This document shows, piece by piece, positions 6,156-40,069 of a stretch of 64,000 bases of DNA. The notes beneath the pieces were generated by a model. The model had not been told where the DNA came from. It was given only the letters and a program-made list of their open reading frames with translations, and ran no database searches. The DNA is from an uncultured Kiritimatiellota bacterium (lineage in GTDB: Bacteria; Verrucomicrobiota; Kiritimatiellia; RFP12; DVOR01). Numbering within the stretch: position 1 is the first letter of the stretch; every line of letters begins with the position of its first letter. The position numbers and the translations under genes are program-made. Location of the stretch: positions 129,818 through 193,817 of the forward strand of contig CALXMW010000003.1 of the NCBI GenBank assembly GCA_944389585.1, read 5' to 3'.

Positions 6156-6165
6156 CCCCACGCCC

Positions 6166-6477
6166 CACTAAGACCACTAGGACAACTAAGACCACTGGGA
6201 CGGCTGGGCGGCGCTTCGCCCGTCGCCCTGCAGGGCAGTCTCCGTTTTCCCTTTGTGCCCGTTGCGTCCTTTGTGCCCTTTGTGATTTCCAGAACCCTAG
6301 CCCGTCCTGCGTGCGCCAGCACGCCCTCAATCTGCTCCAAATCCGAGCAATCTGCGGTTCCTTTCGCCGCAAGCCTCCGTTGTGCCCGTTGAGCTTCCCA
6401 GGCTCCGTGTCTCTCTGCGTGTCCTCTGTGCCCGCTGTGGTCTTCCCTGCGCCGTGCAATGTCCTTTGTGATTTCCA
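6166..6477 (+). repeat. Composite intergenic repeat, copy A (modules M1-M2-M3 ... M4)
   Basis: 9-bp ACTAAGACC/ACTGGGAC units at 6166-6210. GCTTCGCCCGTCGCCCTGCAGGGC hairpin plus TCTCCGTTTTCC at 6212-6251. CCTTTGTG...GATTTCCA at 6252-6292. The 73-nt M4 at 6405-6477 is 71/73 identical to 7706-7778. Confidence 0.85.
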
Positions 6478-6510
6478 AGCGCGCCCCGCCCGCAGTGCTC
6501 CCGACTCCAT

Positions 6511-7235: not shown

Positions 7236-7601
7236 GGGTTTGCATTTCTCCTTCCCCGCCCGACAACGTGGCCGAGGGAATCAGGGACGGGGAAGCAGGG
7301 GATCCCCTCGGCTGGTGCGCCACAGACACACGTCCATGCGCGCATGTCCGCGCTTCCGCCGCAGGCCCACGAAAAGACGCACCGCCCTTTCGCACCTCGC
7401 GGAGGCCCTGAGAAGCCTGATAAGGATGCGAGAGGGAAGTGCACCCAACGGTGCGCACTTCGCCGATTCCGCCGCCTTATCAGAAAGTTCTCAGGTTTCC
7501 ACGAGCGACTTGTCGCGCAAAGCGCAAACGATGCCACAGCTCTCCCATGGCGTGCCAATAGAACAACACAATACCCCCGCCCCTTGGCAAGCCCTCTGCC
7601 C

Positions 7602-7778
7602 TACTGGGACCACTGGGACAACTGGGACGGGTGGGAGAGGGCTTCGCCCGTCGCCCCGCAGGGCGGTCTCCGTTTCCCCGTTGTGTCCTTTGTGATTTCC
7701 AACCACCGTGTCCCTCTGCGTGTCCTCTGTGCCCGCTGTGGTCTCCCCTGCGCCGTGCAATGTCCTTTGTGATTTCCA
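7602..7778 (+). repeat. Composite intergenic repeat, copy B (M1-M2-M3-M4, compact)
   Basis: Same module order and orientation as copy A: TACTGGGACCACTGGGACAACTGGGAC, GCTTCGCCCGTCGCCCCGCAGGGCGGTCTCCGTTTCCCC, GTCCTTTGTGATTTCCA, then M4. Confidence 0.85.
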
Positions 7779-7820
7779 CTTCGCCCCGCCGGTGGGGTGG
7801 GGCGGGGGCAGGAAAAGTCC

Positions 7821-21759: not shown

Positions 21760-23685
21760 TCAGTAGAGGCCGTAGCGCCTGGAGACGAGCTCCGGGGGGA
21801 GCTGCTTGACGAAGCGCGAGGGGAAGAGGGCGACGGTGCCGCCGCCGGGGGGCTTGCGGTGGGAGGGGACGCAGAGCAGGAGCTCGTCTTTGGCGCGGGT
21901 GAGGGCCACGTAGAAGAGGCGGCGCTCCTCGGGGGCCTGGTCTTCCATGATGGCCTTGGCGGAGGGGAAGAGGTCTTCGTTGCACCAGATGAGGATGACG
22001 ACGGGCCATTCGAGGCCTTTGGCCTGGTGGACGGTGGAGAGGCGGATGGCGGGGCGGTCGGGGGCGGCGCCCTCGGCGTCGACGTTGCTCATGAGGGCGG
22101 CCTCGGAGAGGAAGTCGGCGACGGTCTGGCCTTCGGCGATCTGGGCGGCGAGGGCGGCGACGTCCTGGGCGCGGTCCTCGGCGTTGTCGTAGGTGCGGCG
22201 GAGGTAGGCGGCGTACCAGGCCTCGAGGAAGCGTTTGACGGCGAGGCCGCCGCGGTTTTCGAGGCCTTCGGCGTGGTAGTCGGCGATGAGGGCGTCGAGG
22301 GCGCGCCAATCGTCCTGCGCCTTTTTGGGCAGGAGGGTGAGGAGCTTGAGGCGGGCGGTCTCGTCGGCGGGGTCGAAGAAGCCGCCGAGGCGCTGCCAGA
22401 TGCGCTCGACGGTCTTGGGGCCGACGCCGGGGAGGAGGGCCATGCAGCGGGCGAAGGCGATGGCGTCGACGCCGCCGGAGCAGAGCCTGAGGAAGGCGAC
22501 GACGTCTTTGGCGTGCTGGCTTTCGAAGATGCCTTGGCCGGAGGTGAGGACGTAGTCGACGCGGCGGCGGCGGAGCTCGAGCTCCAGCTCCATGACGTGG
22601 TAGTGGGCGCGGTAGAGGACGGCGATGTCTTGGGGGCGGTAGCCGCTTTGGAGGGCGCGCTGGATGTGGCGGAGCACCATCTGGTTTTGCTCGGCGGCGT
22701 CGTAGAGGAAGGCGACGAGGGGCTTGCGGCCGGCGGGGGGGCGCGTGGGCAGGAGGGTTTTCTGGAATTGCTCGGGGTTGCCGGCGATGGTGGCGTTGGC
22801 GACGGCGAGGATCTCGGGGGCGGAGCGGTAGTTGCGCTCGAGCTTGACGACGCGGCAGCCGGGCCAGCGCTTGGGGAAGTCCATGATGTTGCGGAAGTCC
22901 GCGCCGCGCCAGGAGTAGATGCACTGGAAGTCGTCGCCCACGGCCATGAGGTTGCGGTGGCGCGCGGCGAGGCGGTCGACGAGCTGGGCCTGGATGGTGT
23001 TGGTGTCCTGGTATTCGTCGACGAGGACGTGGCGGAAGCGCGCGGCGTAGAAGTCGGCCACCTGGGGGTGTTCCTCGAAGAGGCGCAGGGTGAGGGTGAG
23101 CAGGTCGTCGAAATCCATCGCGTTGTTCTCGCGCTTGGCCTCGGCGTAGCGCCGGGCCACGGCGAGGAGCTGCGCGGGGTCGACGGGGTCCTCGAAGAGG
23201 GTGCCCTCGAGCAGGGCCTGGAGGTCGGCCTGGGTGTTGGCGGCCTTGCCGATGAGGGCGGCGATGACCTCCTTTTTGGGGAAGCGCTTGGTGTCGGCGA
23301 CGAGTTCCTTGAGGCCGCGGTTGAGGAGCGAGAGGGCGTCGGCGCGGTCGAGGATGGCGAAGTCGCGCCGGTATCCCAGGAGGGGCGCCTCGCGGCGGAG
23401 GATGCGGTGGCAGACGTGGTGGAAGGTGCCCGACCAGAGGGTGGCGATGGCGGGCCCGGCGAGGGCCTGGGCGCGTTCCATCATCTCGCGCGCGGCGCGG
23501 TTGGTGAAGGTGAGCAGGAGGATGCCCTCGGGGGCCTCGCCCTGCTCGAGGAGCCAGGCGACGCGGTGGGTGAGGGTGCGCGTCTTGCCGGTGCCGGCGG
23601 CGGCGAGGACGAGCGTGGGCCCTTCGCCGGCGGTCACCGCCGCCAGCTGCTCCGGGTTCAGCAAGCTTTCCCAATCCGTCGCCAT
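21760..23685 (-). CDS. UvrD/Rep/PcrA-family ATP-dependent DNA helicase
   Basis: ATG 23685 gives MATDWESLLNPEQLAAV...VLAAAGTGKTRTL (Walker A). Also DEYQDTN, YRS, and TVHQAKGLEW...LFYVALTRAK. Confidence 0.92.
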   Translation of the reverse strand: MATDWESLLNPEQLAAVTAGEGPTLVLAAAGTGKTRTLTHRVAWLLEQGEAPEGILLLTFTNRAAREMMERAQALAGPAIATLWSGTFHHVCHRILRREAPLLGYRRDFAILDRADALSLLNRGLKELVADTKRFPKKEVIAALIGKAANTQADLQALLEGTLFEDPVDPAQLLAVARRYAEAKRENNAMDFDDLLTLTLRLFEEHPQVADFYAARFRHVLVDEYQDTNTIQAQLVDRLAARHRNLMAVGDDFQCIYSWRGADFRNIMDFPKRWPGCRVVKLERNYRSAPEILAVANATIAGNPEQFQKTLLPTRPPAGRKPLVAFLYDAAEQNQMVLRHIQRALQSGYRPQDIAVLYRAHYHVMELELELRRRRVDYVLTSGQGIFESQHAKDVVAFLRLCSGGVDAIAFARCMALLPGVGPKTVERIWQRLGGFFDPADETARLKLLTLLPKKAQDDWRALDALIADYHAEGLENRGGLAVKRFLEAWYAAYLRRTYDNAEDRAQDVAALAAQIAEGQTVADFLSEAALMSNVDAEGAAPDRPAIRLSTVHQAKGLEWPVVILIWCNEDLFPSAKAIMEDQAPEERRLFYVALTRAKDELLLCVPSHRKPPGGGTVALFPSRFVKQLPPELVSRRYGLY

Positions 23686-23687
23686 AT

Positions 23688-23813
23688 TCACCACAAGGAG
23701 CACAAGGGGCCACAAAGGGCGCAAGGATTTTTAAGGGGGGAAGGAGAGGTGGCAATCATCTCTGTTGGGTTCGCCACAAGGGTCGCAAGGGGCCACAAAG
23801 GGCGCAAAGGGTT
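23688..23813 (-). repeat. Two direct copies of an M3-like module (copy C) in the helicase 5' UTR / downstream of the GxxExxY gene
   Basis: 23688-23737 and 23770-23813 both read TTCRCCACAAGG..CAAGGGGCCACAAAGGGCGCAARG. The reverse complement (CCTTTGCGCCCTTTGTGG...) resembles module M3. Confidence 0.75.
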
Positions 23814-24218
23814 CTAGAGCACGAAGTGTTTGTAGCCATCGATGAGGCGCGGGTAGCCGAAGTTGAGCAGGACGCCATAGCGTTTGTTGGCAAGTTTGAG
23901 GTAGGTGAGCAGCTGTTGTTCGTAGACGGGCTTGTTGGCTTCCGTGGATTTGAGTTCCACCACGAGCGTGTCGTTGACCAACAAGTCCATCCGAAAGGCG
24001 ACGTCAATCACGTGTCCTTCGTCGACCACGGTGACGGGGACTTCCGTCTTGACATCCAGCCCGTGTTTGTCGCGCAATCGATGCAGCAGTGCGACGCGGT
24101 AGAAGTTTTCCAATAACATCGGGCCATAGTTTTGGTGGAGCGAGATGGCCTCGTGGAGCACGATCCCATTGAGCTCGTAGTCTTCGTTGCGTTGGGCAGG
24201 CGTGATTGTCGGCGGCAT
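23814..24218 (-). CDS. GxxExxY-family protein (PD-(D/E)XK nuclease-like fold)
   Basis: 134 aa. GPMLLENFYRVAL (GxxExxY block), DVAFRMDLLVNDTLVVELKS (D...ExK core) and GVLLNFG, as in the family often found in 23S rRNA intervening sequences. Confidence 0.85.
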   Translation of the reverse strand: MPPTITPAQRNEDYELNGIVLHEAISLHQNYGPMLLENFYRVALLHRLRDKHGLDVKTEVPVTVVDEGHVIDVAFRMDLLVNDTLVVELKSTEANKPVYEQQLLTYLKLANKRYGVLLNFGYPRLIDGYKHFVL

Positions 24219-24227
24219 GGCGGCATT

Positions 24228-24273
24228 GGTTCCGTTGCGCCCGTTGTGGTCCTTTGCGTTCTTTGTGGTGGCC
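24228..24273 (+). repeat. M3-like module (copy D), inverted relative to 23770-23813
   Basis: GGTTCCGTTGCGCCCGTTGTGGTCCTTTGCGTTCTTTGTGGTGGCC aligns with the reverse complement of 23770-23813. It fills the whole gap between the GxxExxY start and the next gene's stop. Confidence 0.7.
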
Positions 24274-25230
24274 TTACGCGAGGGCGCGGAAGTAGGCGAT
24301 GGTTTTGGCGAGGCCGTCGCGCAGGGGGATGCGGGGGGCCCAGCCGAGGCAGGCGGTGGCCCAGGCGATGTCGGGCTTGCGGCGCTTGGGGTCGTCGCCG
24401 GGGAGGGGGCGGGTGACGAGGGCGCTTTTGCTTTCGGGGAGCTGGCGGAGGACTTCCTCGGCCAGTTGGCGGACGGTGAATTCGCCGGGGTTGCCCATGT
24501 TGAGGACGGGGATGGCGCAGCCTTTGGGCTTGAAGAAGGCCTCGAGGGCGGCGGGCTCGGCCTGCATGTAGGCCAGGAAGCCGGCGATGAGGTCGTCGAC
24601 GAACTGGAAGCTGCGGGTCTGCGCGCCGTCGCCGTAGAGGGTGATGGGCTCGCCGCGGAGGGCCTGGAGGATGAAGTTGGAGACCACGCGGCCGTCCTTG
24701 GGATCCATGTAGGGCCCGTAGGTGTTGAAGATGCGCACGAGGCGGACGTCGGTGCCGCGGGCGCGGCGGTGCTCGAGGGCGAAGACCTCGGCGGCGCGTT
24801 TGCCTTCGTCGTAGCAGCTGCGGATGCCCAGGGTGTTGACGTGGCCCCAGTAGGTCTCGGGCTGGGGGTGGACGAGGGGGTCGCCGTAGACCTCGCTGGT
24901 GGAGGCGTGGAGGACGCGCGCGCCGCAGCGCTCGGCCAGCTCGAGGACGCGGCGGATGCCGTCGATGGAGGTGGTGAGGGTGAAGAGCGGGTCGCGCTGG
25001 TAGTGCGGGGGCGAGGCGGGGCAGGCCAGGCTGAAGACCCAGTCGTAGTCGCCGGGGATGGGCTCGCGCACGTCGCGCTCCAGGAGCGTGGCGCCGAGGC
25101 CCTCGAGGTTGGCGCGTCGGCCGGTGTAGAAGTCGTCGAGGAGGGTGACGTGGTGCCCTTCGGCCAGGAGCCTGCGGGCCAGGTTGGCGCCGATGAACCC
25201 CGCGCCGCCGGTGATGAGAACCTTTTTCAT
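24274..25230 (-). CDS. UDP-glucuronate decarboxylase (UDP-xylose synthase), SDR family
   Basis: MKKVLITGGAGFIGANL, ASTSEVYGDP, YDEGKR and RIFNTYGP are typical of UXS/ArnA-C-type decarboxylases. Confidence 0.9.
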   Translation of the reverse strand: MKKVLITGGAGFIGANLARRLLAEGHHVTLLDDFYTGRRANLEGLGATLLERDVREPIPGDYDWVFSLACPASPPHYQRDPLFTLTTSIDGIRRVLELAERCGARVLHASTSEVYGDPLVHPQPETYWGHVNTLGIRSCYDEGKRAAEVFALEHRRARGTDVRLVRIFNTYGPYMDPKDGRVVSNFILQALRGEPITLYGDGAQTRSFQFVDDLIAGFLAYMQAEPAALEAFFKPKGCAIPVLNMGNPGEFTVRQLAEEVLRQLPESKSALVTRPLPGDDPKRRKPDIAWATACLGWAPRIPLRDGLAKTIAYFRALA

Positions 25231-25719: not shown

Positions 25720-25774
25720 CCCCGCGGCCGCGGCGGGATTGACCGCGCCCCGCGCCTGTACTAAGGTGGGCGCC

Positions 25775-27724
25775 ATGATGAAACGCGCCCTCGCCCTCCT
25801 TGTCCTGGCCTTTGCGGCCGCCCTCCCCGCCGCCGAATGGACGCTCGCGGGTTTCCCGACCCACTGGGATCAATCCGGCACCTACAACGCCTACACGCCG
25901 GGCAAGCGTAAGTGCGGCTGCATCGCCGTCGCCGGCGCGGCCGTGCTCCAGTTCTACAACGCGACAAAAGACCCTGGGACGCAGACGGTGGAGTGCTCAA
26001 TCGACAGCGAGCCGATCTGGCTCACCACCCGCCCCGGCGCGTATGACTGGGACAACGCGGATGACGCCCTCTACGGCCGCGTGGCCTACAACCTGGGCGT
26101 GCAGGTGGGGATGAACTACGGCGGCCAGGAAAGCTCCGCCGCCACCGAACGCCTGGCCGGCGTGCTCGAAAGCTATGGCCTCACCTGCACCTACGCGCGG
26201 CGGATGGCCACGGGCGGCTTCACCCAGGCCGAGCTCGAGGCGCACCTCTACGTGCCGCTCCGCCTGGGCTGGCCCGTGATCCTGGGTATCCGCGGCGGCA
26301 CCTCGCACGCCGTCGTGGCCACCGGCGTGCGGCCCGCGGCGGGCTCGGAAGCCGTGGAGACGCGCCTCTTCGCGGGCTTCGGCGGCAAGGGCGACGGCTG
26401 GTATGCCCTGCCGGAGGCCACCATCAACGACATCCCGTTCGACACCGTCACCGACATCCTCATCGTGCGCACCCAGGCCGAGGGCGACCGCTGCTGGCAG
26501 GCCGTCTACGGCGCCGTCTCCGCCCCCGACGGCACGCCCGCCCCCGACGGCACGCCCGCCCCCGACGGCACGCCCGTCACGCTCACCTGCGGCGGCGAGA
26601 CCCACACCGCGACGACGGCCGGCGGCGCCTACGCCCTCGCCTTCCAAGCCCCAATCAACACCCCCGTGCAAGTCTCCTGCGGCGGGCAATTGCGCGTGGT
26701 TGCTTTCATGAGCGCGGAGGAATTGCCGCGGAGGCTGGATTTCGTCGAGGGGAACGCGACGCCGGACGGGGCGTATTTGATAGGCCCGGATGTCACGGCG
26801 TTGGATTTGGAGCGGTATCCGGACTTCCGCTTCCATCTTTATCAAGTGCAGGGGGAAACGCTGGTCGAGCTTTCCCCGGTGACGTGGTCGGCCTCGCTTG
26901 AGAATGTCCAAGGCGCCAGCGAGTTTGCCTACGGCATCTCGGCCTCCATCGATTCCTCCGGGCGCGTCTTCTGTTCGGACAGCCGGTTCCGCTCCGCCAC
27001 GCTCACCGTCAAAGGCCAATACGGCAGAAACCCCGCGGTCAGCAAGACGATGACGCTGTATCCGCGCATGACGCTCGTGGTGAACAGTTGGGTGCCCTCC
27101 GTGCGTCAGGTCTGGCCTGGCGAGGTCGTCGAAGCCCGGGACATCCGCCTCAACGTCACCACGGGCGGGGAGACGACCCAGACGGACGACCTTTCCGAAG
27201 CGGTGTTTCGCCTCAATGGCAACAGATGGAGCGCCCAAGGGACGGCGCTTGCCATCCCTGCCGGGACGGAGGTCTCGCGCCAACAGCAATTGCAACTGTC
27301 GCTCAGCGCCTGGAGAGCGGGCGATTCGGAAGACCCCTTTGCCGCCAAGGCCGCCACGATAGACCTTATGCCTTCCGCCTCGACCCTCGGCGACGACTTC
27401 GACAATATCCCCGATGGCTGGCTCAAGGCGCGGGTCGGGGCGACGGATGAGACTCTCGAGAAGGTGGCCCGCGCCGACAGCGACGGGGATGGGTACGCGA
27501 ATTGGGAGGAGTGGGTGGCGGGGACGGACCCGAAGGACGCGGGGAGCACGTTGCGGGTGACGGGGCTGGAGGTGGGCGCGGACGGCGCGGCGCGGGTGGA
27601 GTGGGCGCCGCGGGCGCCGGGGCGGAAGGCCGTCGTCGTGGGGGCGGAGGCGCTTGGGGGGCCGTGGCGGGAAGACCCCGGCGCGGGGGCGCGCTTCTTC
27701 CGCGTCAGGGTTTCGCTGGAGTGA
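25775..27724 (+). CDS. Secreted peptidase C10 (streptopain-like cysteine protease) with Pro-rich repeat, beta-sandwich modules and a C-terminal TSP3-like/FFRV domain
   Basis: Signal peptide MMKRALALLVLAFAAALPAA. Catalytic-Cys block KCGCIAVAGAAVLQFY, His block GGTSHAVVATG, and GDGWYAL. C-terminus DSDGDGYANWEEWVAGTDPKD...ARFFRVRVSLE. Confidence 0.8.
   Translation: MMKRALALLVLAFAAALPAAEWTLAGFPTHWDQSGTYNAYTPGKRKCGCIAVAGAAVLQFYNATKDPGTQTVECSIDSEPIWLTTRPGAYDWDNADDALYGRVAYNLGVQVGMNYGGQESSAATERLAGVLESYGLTCTYARRMATGGFTQAELEAHLYVPLRLGWPVILGIRGGTSHAVVATGVRPAAGSEAVETRLFAGFGGKGDGWYALPEATINDIPFDTVTDILIVRTQAEGDRCWQAVYGAVSAPDGTPAPDGTPAPDGTPVTLTCGGETHTATTAGGAYALAFQAPINTPVQVSCGGQLRVVAFMSAEELPRRLDFVEGNATPDGAYLIGPDVTALDLERYPDFRFHLYQVQGETLVELSPVTWSASLENVQGASEFAYGISASIDSSGRVFCSDSRFRSATLTVKGQYGRNPAVSKTMTLYPRMTLVVNSWVPSVRQVWPGEVVEARDIRLNVTTGGETTQTDDLSEAVFRLNGNRWSAQGTALAIPAGTEVSRQQQLQLSLSAWRAGDSEDPFAAKAATIDLMPSASTLGDDFDNIPDGWLKARVGATDETLEKVARADSDGDGYANWEEWVAGTDPKDAGSTLRVTGLEVGADGAARVEWAPRAPGRKAVVVGAEALGGPWREDPGAGARFFRVRVSLE
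26522..26575 (+). repeat. Perfect 18-bp x 3 in-frame tandem repeat (APDGTP x3) inside the C10 peptidase gene
   Basis: GCCCCCGACGGCACGCCC is repeated three times without mismatch. Confidence 0.95.
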
Positions 27725-31273: not shown

Positions 31274-31308
31274 CCCAAAAAGCCCCGCACCCGCGGGGCT
31301 TTTTTTTT
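31274..31308 (+). terminator. Rho-independent terminator after ppdK; 35 nt identical to the one after rplL
   Basis: CCCAAAAAGCCCCGCACCCGCGGGGCTTTTTTTTT: an 8-bp stem, ACCC loop and T9. An exact copy lies at 39653-39687. Confidence 0.85.
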
Positions 31309-31646
31309 GGAGAACGGAGAGCGCCCCTGCGGGGCGACCGGCGCACGCATCCGCTGCGCGGGCACCCGCAAAGGCGCAACGTGAAGCAAAGGACGCAAAG
31401 GGGAAAGACGGAAAGCGAATGCCCCGCGGTGCGGAGAAAGGGCAGATGGTGGGCGGGCAGGCAAGAGCGGGGATGGCGGGCAGGAGCAGGGTGGTGGGCG
31501 GCGTCTCAGTGGTCTTAGTGGTCCCAGTGGTCCCAGAGCGTGGCATCCTTGGCGGCGGCGTGCTAGGACAACTGGGACTGCTGGGACTGCTGGGACAACT
31601 GGGTCGGGCTCCGCCCGTCGCCCCGCAGGGGCGTTCTCCGTTCTCT
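31309..31646. repeat. Palindromic composite repeat, copy E (MITE-like, about 338 bp)
   Basis: Terminal inverted repeats 31309-31343 and 31612-31646 match 32/35 (GGAGAACGGAGAGCGCCCCTGCGGGGCGACCGGCG). Inside are inverted 9-bp GGTCCCAGT / ACTGGGAC arrays (31506-31538 and 31563-31603) and an M3-like stretch (31380-31416). Confidence 0.8.
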
Positions 31647-31662
31647 GTCCGCCGATTTCCGA

Positions 31663-34550: not shown

Positions 34551-34668
34551 TGGCCGCGGAAGGCAGCCGCGGAAGGCAGCCGTGGAAGGTAGCCGTGGAA
34601 GGTAGCCGTGGAAGGTAGCCGTGGAAGGTAGCCGTGGAAGGTAGCCGTGGAAGGTAGCCGTGGAAGGT
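34551..34668 (+). repeat. 13-bp tandem array, about 9.5 copies (GGAAGGTAGCCGT)
   Basis: Units start at 34558, 34571, 34584 ... 34649. The first two have C for T (GGAAGGCAGCCGC/T) and the last six are identical. It starts 1 nt after the HAD stop. The unit length is not a multiple of 3. Confidence 0.95.
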
Positions 34669-34669
34669 T

Positions 34670-34720
34670 CGCCCTTCGGGCTCACACGCCCTTCGGGCTC
34701 ACACGCCCTTCGGGCTCACG
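34670..34720 (+). repeat. 17-bp tandem array x3 (CGCCCTTCGGGCTCACA), each unit a GCCC-TTC-GGGC mini-hairpin
   Basis: Copies at 34670-34686, 34687-34703 and 34704-34720, with one mismatch in the last. Abuts the 13-mer array. Confidence 0.95.
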
Positions 34721-34893: not shown

Positions 34894-34969
<76 letters not shown>

Positions 34970-39652: not shown

Positions 39653-39687
39653 CCCAAAAAGCCCCGCACCCGCGGGGCTTTTTTTTT
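39653..39687 (+). terminator. Rho-independent terminator after rplL (exact copy of 31274-31308)
   Basis: CCCAAAAAGCCCCGCACCCGCGGGGCTTTTTTTTT. Confidence 0.85.
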
Positions 39688-39691
39688 GTAT

Positions 39692-40018
39692 AGACCACAG
39701 AGAACACGGAGGACACACAGAGACGCACAGAGAATTGGAAATCACAAAGGACACAAAGGGCACAAAGGGGAGAACGGAAAACGGAGAACGGGAAACGGAG
39801 CATGCGGCGGCGAAGCCGCAAGCCTTCCCCGGCTACAAAGAGCGCCCCTGACGGGGCGCCGGGTCAGGCACGTCGCAGACGTGCCGCGGGTACAGGGGGA
39901 GCTTCCCCCTGCCGGGGTTCAAGGGGCGGCGCCCCTTGAACCTTCCATCACCTTCCCTTTTCTCGTTTTCCCTTCCCCTCCGTGTCCCTTTGTGTGTCCT
40001 CTGTGCTCTCTGTGGTCT
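39692..40018. repeat. Palindromic composite repeat, copy F (MITE-like, about 327 bp)
   Basis: Imperfect TIRs at 39692-39732 and 39978-40018 (34/41; M4-type AGACCACAGAGAACAC...). The left arm also carries inverted M3 (TGGAAATCACAAAGGACACAAAGGGCACAAAGG) and GGAGAACGGAAAACGGAGAACGG. The centre (39842-39940) holds four consecutive perfect hairpins. Confidence 0.8.
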
Positions 40019-40069
40019 CCCCTGCGCCGTGTCTTTTTTGCCAAAAGTGGGGACAGGGGCGGTGGGTTA

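Follow-up and report, generated by a model that had tools for sequence, protein, structure and literature searches.

What kind of unit is a small gene that lies between inverted arrays of short repeats, in the gap between two tightly packed host genes? The question is raised by a GxxExxY gene on contig CALXMW010000003.1 of an uncultured Kiritimatiellota bacterium, of which we analyzed a stretch of 64,000 nucleotides (nt), here called the window. The GC content of the window is 70.8%, and the named homologues of its proteins come from Kiritimatiellia/Kiritimatiellae, including Ca. Spyradenecus. An earlier note on this DNA had the gene lying exactly between inverted copies of a repeat module, with a third copy as the leader of the neighboring helicase gene, and proposed an analogy with the intervening sequences of 23S ribosomal RNA (rRNA) genes. 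All coordinates given there hold on re-examination, and a repeat search confirmed the arrangement. As set out below, the array-gene-array unit is the normal packaging of the GxxExxY family across phyla, and we lean towards reading this locus as a mobile, intervening-sequence-like cassette bracketed by its arrays.

The cassette and its junction in relatives

The epimerase, GxxExxY and helicase genes are all on the minus strand, and the cassette is in sense orientation to its hosts. In the direction of transcription, the junction reads as follows.

24274-25230, minus strand: upstream host gene, NAD-dependent epimerase/dehydratase (PF01370, E 2.9e-44)
24228-24273, minus strand: upstream (5') array, sense strand CCACCACAAAGAACGCAAAGGACCACAACGGGCGCAACGG, with four purine-rich units of 9-10 nt
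23814-24218, minus strand: GxxExxY gene, 134 amino acids (aa) plus stop, with matches to PF13366 and TIGR04256
23770-23813, minus strand: proximal downstream (3') array D1, sense strand CCCTTTGCGCCCTTTGTGGCCCCTTGCGACCCTTGTGG, the complement of the upstream array
23734-23769, minus strand: spacer between D1 and D2, overlapping most of a sigma-70-like match
23687-23733, minus strand: distal downstream array D2, a direct copy of D1, 83% identical
21760-23685, minus strand: downstream host gene, UvrD/PcrA-type helicase with 641 aa, counted from ATG 23685 (PF00580, E 3.7e-79)

The arrays take up the whole intergenic space between the epimerase-type gene (the sugar decarboxylase of the earlier note) and the helicase gene. 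The upstream array follows the epimerase stop codon directly and leaves 9 nt free before the GxxExxY ATG, D1 touches the GxxExxY stop codon (TAG, 23814-23816), and D2 ends 1 nt ahead of the helicase ATG. This helicase start (ATG 23685, MATDW...) was assigned by homology to relatives; the homologue P0080 is 100% identical over 641 aa. Every arm is a tandem array of four 9-10-nt units. On the plus strand of the window, CACAARGG-type units make up the arrays at 23687-23813, downstream of the gene, and their complement makes up the array at 24228-24273, upstream of it; on the sense strand, which is used for the comparisons below, this reads as CACAAAG-type units upstream of the open reading frame (ORF) and CTTTGTG-type units downstream. 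The repeat search aligned the direct copies over 47 nt with 83% identity (23687-23733 against 23770-23816), and the inverted arms over 37 nt with 81% complementarity (23774-23810 against 24232-24268) and over 36 nt with 83% complementarity (23689-23724 against 24235-24270).

The same arrays resemble a repeat family whose other members in the window carry no ORF, as the earlier note had supposed, and this likeness is significant. A two-unit motif, CRCAARGGNCRCAARGG, has 13 matches in the window with up to 2 mismatches, versus 0.84 expected, and none of 100 dinucleotide-preserving shuffles of the window reached 13.

Syntenic junctions in relatives were found through homologues of the helicase. 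The epimerase and helicase genes are directly adjacent in relatives without the cassette, and the unit proved to be present in some relatives and absent from others.

Window: with the GxxExxY cassette
L001: likewise with the GxxExxY cassette
L091: without the cassette; a gap of 82 nt, in which there are GC hairpins and a GAAGAAC-type array
L092: without the gene; a gap of 425 nt that opens with the same CACAAAG array directly after the epimerase stop codon
L092 gap, after the CACAAAG array: other modules, namely four copies of GAGAACGGA, four of CAGGAGAT and three of ATCTGCG
L093: empty site, with 22 nt between the stop and start codons

By the identities of the flanking helicase and epimerase genes, the window pairs with L091 (about 90%) and L001 with L092 (94-96%), with L093 as the outgroup (about 75%). 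The window and L001 have the cassette and their respective partners do not; each sister pair is therefore polymorphic. The L001 protein is 80% identical to that of the window, and its gene lies at the same epimerase-helicase junction, with four CACAAAG units upstream and four CTTTGTG units downstream, in a single downstream array where the window has two. More distant copies, L003 and L009 (70% and 63% identical), which with L001 make up the three closest homologues found in metagenomes, lie in another operon, where a glycosyltransferase gene comes before one for a type II secretion ATPase, and have the same arrays.

Between the window and L001, the GxxExxY genes have a nucleotide identity of 75%, a synonymous divergence (dS) of 1.66 and a nonsynonymous divergence (dN) of 0.14, with dN/dS at about 0.09. 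The corresponding helicase genes are 91% identical (dS 0.19, dN 0.074), and the epimerase genes have a dS of 0.25 and a dN of 0.058, which puts the synonymous divergence of the GxxExxY gene about 8-fold above that of its flanks. In base composition, the window gene has 56% GC, with 78% at third codon positions (GC3), against 70% GC and 95% GC3 in its neighbors; the L001 gene has 47% GC, and the host genes 68-70%. The low dN/dS indicates a protein under purifying selection. The cassette has had a history separate from that of its flanks, and the unit has been gained, lost or replaced among close relatives. The divergence pattern at the junction is in keeping with repeated insertions at a single site or with an exchange of cassettes there.

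A match to the sigma-70 consensus, TTGCCA-17-AAAAAT, runs from 23755 to 23727 on the minus strand, with its -10 hexamer extending 7 nt into D2; one such match was found versus 0.1 expected, counting agreement with the consensus only. This putative promoter could serve the helicase gene in its own right after the cassette had split the operon. A scan of 23500-24500 found no intrinsic terminators, and an Rfam scan of the window returned two tRNAs only, with no RNA family over the arrays.

Array packaging across the GxxExxY family

Using a 35-member family profile, we collected the 80 best-matching loci from one-genome-per-species contigs, 72 of which were usable. These loci span Cyanobacteria, Planctomycetota, Verrucomicrobiota, Acidobacteriota, Bacteroidota, several proteobacterial classes, Chloroflexota and a Methanothrix, and most, inspected by eye, have C[AG]C[AG][AG]AG-type units upstream of the gene and the complement downstream. 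The flanks were scored by the best local alignment of the 110 nt upstream with the reverse complement of the 110 nt downstream, and 394 positions of the same geometry elsewhere in the same loci served as controls. The median inverted-repeat score was 29 for the 72 GxxExxY loci versus 15 for the controls; 71% of the loci exceeded the 95th percentile of the controls and 64% the 99th. Arrays defined by regular expression numbered 173 in 457 kb (the loci plus the window), versus 0 in shuffled sequence. The array-ORF-array unit is the normal packaging of the GxxExxY family across phyla, and the systematic flanking by inverted arrays reaches far beyond the single genome within which the earlier note had proposed to look for it.

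The position of the arrays relative to the gene is also regular. The spacing of the units is 8, 9 or 10 nt, the gap between the upstream array and the start codon is at most 11 nt in 21 of 42 GxxExxY loci, and that between the stop codon and the downstream array at most 13 nt in 21 of 43. The last units of the upstream array often contain GGAG or AAGG, resembling a Shine-Dalgarno (SD) sequence and at the proper distance for one. The purine-rich arm is the upstream one in 39 of 51 loci. Some loci have the reversed polarity, with a pyrimidine-rich array upstream, and these genes often lie between two complete ORF-less hairpins (L035, L039, L063), which means that such hairpins cluster with the genes.

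Hairpins of this kind, in which a purine-rich array, a short loop and a pyrimidine-rich array follow one another, were seen on both sides of GxxExxY genes in L035, L039, L063 and L083, several of them in tandem. This layout suggests clustering or nested insertion.

Array type and protein are associated. Among 52 loci with a clear unit type, pairs of the same type have proteins that are on average 55.3% identical, versus 51.9% for pairs of different type (permutation p < 0.0005). For example, cassettes from Nodularia and from a Pyrinomonadaceae bacterium encode proteins 77% identical in aa sequence, and both have CGCAAAG units. Array type thus tracks the protein, and near-identical cassettes occur in different phyla; the ORF and its arrays are therefore passed on as a unit, between phyla as well. 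With only 3 GxxExxY loci found among 2.9 million viral contigs, the family does not reside mainly in phages.

The arrays also disturb annotation. Gene callers often add array-encoded residues to the N- or C-termini of these small proteins, for example MTITKDTKGTKGG or MTTTEDTEITE. In L003 (4001-4093) and L009 (3440-3494) the arrays are translated as coding sequence, which puts MTITKDTKGTKGG on the N-terminus of the GxxExxY protein, and in L009 the ORF of the upstream glycosyltransferase appears to continue through the array.

What the cassette carries is a member of a very large family, comprising 36,577 clusters at 50% identity (E <= 1e-3). The window protein matches TIGR04256 (GxxExxY; E 1.4e-27, 96.3 bits against a cutoff of 35) and PF13366 (PDDEXK_3; E 3.4e-27, 95.6 bits against a cutoff of 22), the latter being its sole Pfam match. 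In a 35-sequence alignment, G32, E37, Y40, E88 and K90 are invariant and D78 nearly so (at least 90%). All six are found in the window protein, with the motif set G32-x-x-x-x-E37-x-x-Y40, D78 and E88-x-K90 intact. By its sequence, it is a minimal PD-(D/E)XK domain with the complete signature, and nuclease activity is predicted. An AlphaFold model (pLDDT 92, pTM 0.85) likewise places it in the PD-(D/E)XK, or restriction-endonuclease-like, fold, with Cas4 SSO0001 (4ic1, E 1.4e-4, TM 0.55), lambda exonuclease and LHK-Exo as the top structural matches in the PDB; a search of the PDB by sequence profile gave no match to a solved structure. Searches of defense libraries gave two marginal matches and nothing else, one to Cas4 in PADLOC and one to a CRISPR-associated PHROG. 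Likeness to the Cas4/lambda-exonuclease clade lies in these structural matches, the weak PADLOC match and the D...ExK motif. The GxxExxY protein differs from that clade in its size of about 125 aa, its lack of Fe-S cysteines, the lack of a CRISPR context and the marginal sequence similarity. A survey of the PD-(D/E)XK superfamily gives the function of the family as unknown (PMC3424549); the literature that we found mentions GxxExxY or PF13366 only in passing and contains no biochemical report on the family.

The top-scoring family representatives (P0320-P0335) contain the full GxxExxY domain twice, in a length of 250-295 aa. They may be true fusions in tandem, or neighboring cassettes read through as one.

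Intervening sequences and rival readings

The earlier note took GxxExxY genes to be known from 23S rRNA intervening sequences. This claim conflated two families: the ORF documented in these intervening sequences encodes S23p, a four-helix bundle with the Pfam family PF05635 (PMC4990558; PMC10053308), and we found no description in the literature of GxxExxY in an intervening sequence. The window ORF is of PF13366, has no PF05635 match and is located outside 23S rRNA, with an epimerase-type gene and a helicase gene as its neighbors.

In architecture, the analogy fared better. In the intervening sequence of Coxiella, the S23p ORF is preceded by a tandem run of three or four GACAGAT units, and RNase III cuts a terminal stem of 28 bp; ORF-bearing intervening sequences are regarded as selfish and patchily distributed (PMC4990558). 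More generally, the ORF-bearing 23S intervening sequences (those of Coxiella, Leptospira, Brucella and the Xanthomonas-type S23p) resemble the cassette in that an ORF of about 120 aa lies within terminal inverted repeats pairing into a long stem, that short repeats stand in tandem upstream of this ORF, and that the whole is about 400-600 nt long. For comparison, a terminal stem of at least 20 bp was looked for at our locus, and the arms there are 36-37 nt long, 81-83% complementary and paired in both the minimum free energy (MFE) and the centroid RNA structures. The differences are that the 23S intervening sequences sit in helix 25 or 45, with the GxxExxY cassette lying between protein-coding genes, and that they encode S23p with 7-nt units, as opposed to a PD-(D/E)XK protein (PF13366) with units of 9-10 nt. 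RNase III processing is reported for the Coxiella element and is predicted for the cassette.

PF05635 genes outside rRNA have the array-ORF-array design of the GxxExxY cassette. We checked a PF05635 consensus against Pfam (E 3e-52) and used it to collect real PF05635 proteins, which gave 80 metagenomic loci, 67 of them usable. By the same flank score, 78% of the 67 exceed the 95th percentile of the controls. A period of 7 nt within the arms was found in 40 of 47 loci and an upstream purine-rich arm in 38 of 47; the units include TTAGTGA/TCACTAA, CAGCGGT/ACCGCTG and GGTATTA/TAATACC. Since the same design surrounds GxxExxY and PF05635 genes, two unrelated small-protein families share one packaging. 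Two conserved motifs of 23S domain V were found in none of the 187 fetched loci, including the 80 GxxExxY loci, in a scan limited to 1.5-2 kb of flank; the sampled cassettes are therefore not in rRNA genes. There were no PF05635 genes among the ORFs adjoining arrays in the GxxExxY loci, where the neighbors are ordinary (B12-binding, 2Fe-2S, toxin-antitoxin).

Across the PF05635 loci (L095-L174), the unit sequences are very diverse, within the common pattern of inverted arrays with a 7-nt period. Several of these units, for example TTGGTGA, a GGGGACT-like unit and CAACTGA, resemble the heptamers of the cyanobacterial short tandemly repeated repetitive (STRR) sequences.

With these comparisons in hand, we think it probable, if by no great measure, that what lies here is a discrete, roughly 590-bp cassette, in which a Cas4-like minimal PD-(D/E)XK gene lies between inverted purine-rich arrays, inserted in a tight epimerase-helicase pair. 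On the transcript, the upstream array would pair with one of the downstream arrays into a panhandle of 35-40 bp enclosing the ORF, the counterpart of the RNase III-cut terminal stem of the ORF-bearing rRNA intervening sequences. Through such a stem, the host could remove the insert from the transcript of the operon by processing, so that insertion in an operon is tolerated, and the stem might also mask the ribosome-binding region of the ORF, often within the last array units. The nuclease may serve the maintenance or spread of the cassette, for example by homing-like cutting of array-bearing or empty target sites, and the arrays without an ORF would represent landing sites or non-autonomous relatives. 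When the RNA of 23680-24285 (minus strand) is folded, the MFE and centroid structures alike contain a stem of about 37 bp that encloses the ORF and is formed by the upstream array and D2. The purine-rich-upstream polarity shared by both families, the array abutting the start codon and the SD-like GGAG or AAGG point to a role on the transcript.

Several results weigh against this interpretation. The fold of the whole region has a z-score of -1.9 from 20 shuffles, which is weak. Transition mismatches in the arms have no excess of G.U over A.C on the sense strand (65 vs 70 for GxxExxY, 70 vs 67 for PF05635), and this argues against selection at the RNA level, because selection on a sense-strand RNA stem would favor G.U. 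It may instead be on the DNA that the arms are kept complementary, in a role as terminal repeats or through recent copying. The 8-fold contrast in dS is perhaps inflated, given that the extreme codon bias of the flanking genes (GC3 95%) depresses their dS and that the composition of the cassette is drifting. No target-site duplication was seen by eye at the window junction, where the outside sequences, ..GCGTAAGG| and |AATATGGCG, share no direct repeat; compared with the empty site of L093, the entire 22-nt spacer has been replaced. Pfam and NCBIfam family searches with the encoded protein gave no match to a DDE, HUH, serine or tyrosine recombinase. The number of units did not change within the species across 10 contigs encoding an identical protein, so the arrays are not obviously phase-variable here. 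Finally, the 80 loci of each family are best protein matches rather than a random sample, their starts were assigned by rule, and they come mostly from metagenome assemblies.

The strand-symmetric look of the arm complementarity is what an element acting on DNA would leave. An unlikely but coherent alternative is that the arrays are multi-site, protein-bound terminal inverted repeats, like iterons or the ends of Tn7 or Mu, with the RNA stem incidental. GxxExxY would then be the element's own nuclease or transposase, and the ORF-less arrays would be non-autonomous copies akin to MITEs (miniature transposable elements with inverted repeats), in agreement with their scatter over the window, the covariation of array type with protein, the presence or absence of the cassette among close relatives and the 8-10-bp spacing of the GxxExxY units, near one helical turn. 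The PF05635 loci are difficult to accommodate in such a scheme, for they have the same design with proteins that lack a nuclease motif, and their period of 7 nt does not correspond to a helical repeat. Nor would symmetric ends be expected to have their purine-rich arm upstream in about 77-81% of the loci of both families. Terminal inverted repeats, as in a DNA transposon, are found here; neither a target-site duplication nor a recognized transposase was seen with them at the window junction, and the protein is a single domain of about 125 aa without a separate DNA-binding module.

It is also conceivable, though we consider it quite unlikely, that the gene is a resident of the host and the arrays its cis-regulatory packaging. 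In that case, tandem SD-like units and their anti-sequence would act as elements of the 5' and 3' untranslated regions, controlling the translation or mRNA stability of a small housekeeping or defense nuclease, and patchiness would reflect deletion and not mobility. Arrays that abut start and stop codons, often with GGAG or AAGG in the last units at SD distance, a purine-rich arm that is preferentially upstream, a protein under purifying selection and arrays that are stable within the species all accord with this, and heptamers just 5' of start codons have been described as putative post-transcriptional signals (PMC4679880). However, a resident gene should not exceed its flanks about 8-fold in synonymous divergence or have a GC content foreign to its host. 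The 22-nt empty site of the outgroup L093, the different repeat modules that sister genomes hold at the same site, the near-identical cassette types in different phyla and the commonness of ORF-less arrays speak against it as well. That the GxxExxY gene merely happens to lie among generic intergenic repeats, of which several composite mosaics occur elsewhere in the window, is so improbable that it can be set aside, being contradicted by the 71% of 72 loci across many phyla that exceed positional controls and by the paralogues that carry the same arrays in other operons.

Among known systems, REPINs and their RAYTs, built on repetitive extragenic palindromic (REP) sequences, are alike in having a single small gene within inverted short repeats and dispersed intergenic copies without an ORF. 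The inverted flanks and the dispersed ORF-less repeat (13 matches versus 0.84) are found here too, but without a Y1 (HUH) transposase: RAYTs are IS200/IS605-type Y1 (HUH) transposases, whereas the cassette gene encodes a PD-(D/E)XK domain. REPs are individually palindromic hairpins, in contrast to the cassette arms, which are tandem arrays and not self-complementary, and there are many GxxExxY paralogues, each of them within arrays of its own. Free-standing homing endonuclease genes and pairs of MITEs with autonomous transposons share with the cassette a small nuclease gene, terminal inverted repeats and ORF-less relatives. Presence or absence at one site and a history independent of the flanks, as for homing endonuclease genes, were both found at this junction. 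The cassette differs in that no target-site duplication or transposase was seen and in having a second cargo family without a nuclease motif.

Short tandem heptamer repeats (the cyanobacterial STRR sequences, TAACTGA of Beggiatoaceae and Cyanobacteria, GGGAATC of Xanthomonas) are alike as intergenic arrays of 7-9-nt units. A start codon often follows right after them (PMC4679880), and they often form convergent inverted pairs, of which there are 70 in X. campestris (PMC4692102). Their proposed functions are regulatory or involve G-quadruplexes, in contrast to arrays that are tied to cargo genes and to the gain and loss of whole units. Term searches found no mention of S23p or a four-helix bundle in PMC4679880 and PMC4692102, nor of PDDEXK in the TAACTGA paper.

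A wider proposal, which we offer tentatively and regard as doubtful, is that GxxExxY and S23p cassettes are two cargo versions of one cross-phylum superclass of mobile elements that end in inverted tandem-repeat arrays. The ORF-bearing 23S intervening sequences would be a special case that landed in rRNA, many ORF-less STRR-type heptamers and convergent pairs would be non-autonomous derivatives or landing pads, and the PD-(D/E)XK protein would be a structure- or array-specific endonuclease driving site-specific re-insertion. The ORF-bearing rRNA intervening sequences with inverted ends, the heptamer arrays and convergent pairs (PMC4692102) and the arrays ending 5' of start codons (PMC4679880) are already described. 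In our incomplete coverage of the literature, we found no paper on inverted arrays flanking GxxExxY genes or on GxxExxY and S23p cassettes as one architecture. The observations give a very large family, GxxExxY/PDDEXK_3, a concrete and testable biology, with routine array packaging, gain and loss, exchange between phyla, a parallel in S23p and the design of an intervening sequence. They also suggest an origin for the ORF-bearing 23S intervening sequences and for the abundant short tandem heptamer arrays.

ORF-less arrays and other repeats in the window

Copies of the module without an ORF were located at four places.

39743-39768, plus strand: ORF-less array of module CACAAAGGACACAAAGGGCACAAAGG, within a composite mosaic at about 39690-40030
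6250-6284, minus strand: ORF-less array in the opposite orientation, four copies of CCCTTTGTG ending in GTGATTTCCA, within a mosaic at about 6165-6480
7678-7694, minus strand: short ORF-less copy of two units ending in GTGATTTCCA, a motif match
31385-31401, plus strand: short ORF-less copy AGCAAAGGACGCAAAGG, within a composite mosaic at about 31310-31650

The first of these, taken as 39741-39770, matches the upstream array of the GxxExxY paralogue L003, with identity over about 30 nt. A tblastn search for GxxExxY coding remnants elsewhere in the window, including beside the ORF-less arrays, matched the gene itself only.

The ORF-less mosaics, at about 6165-6480, 7600-7790, 31310-31650 and 39690-40030, mix array types (CCACTAAGA, ACTGGGACA, GAGAACGGA, CACAGAGGA and CACAAAGG), and modules from them reappear at the epimerase-helicase junction of the relative L092. 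GC-rich hairpins such as GCGCCCCTGCGGGGCG accompany the arrays, and the mosaics are in part built as nested inverted pairs. Identical 32-nt terminator-like hairpins, AAAAAGCCCCGCACCCGCGGGGCTTTTTTTTT, occur at 31277-31308 and 39656-39687, after different genes, and each leads straight into a composite mosaic of repeat arrays.

Other tandem repeats were seen apart from the arrays. The region 34553-34719 holds a near-perfect 13-nt repeat, GCCGTGGAAGGTA (8.9 copies, 98% matches), followed directly by a perfect 17-nt repeat, CGCCCTTCGGGCTCACA (2.9 copies), the two lying about 180 nt upstream of the tRNA gene at 34894-34966. At 26520-26576, a perfect 18-nt tandem repeat of 3.2 copies encodes PAPDGT repeats in the 661-aa ORF at 25739-27724.

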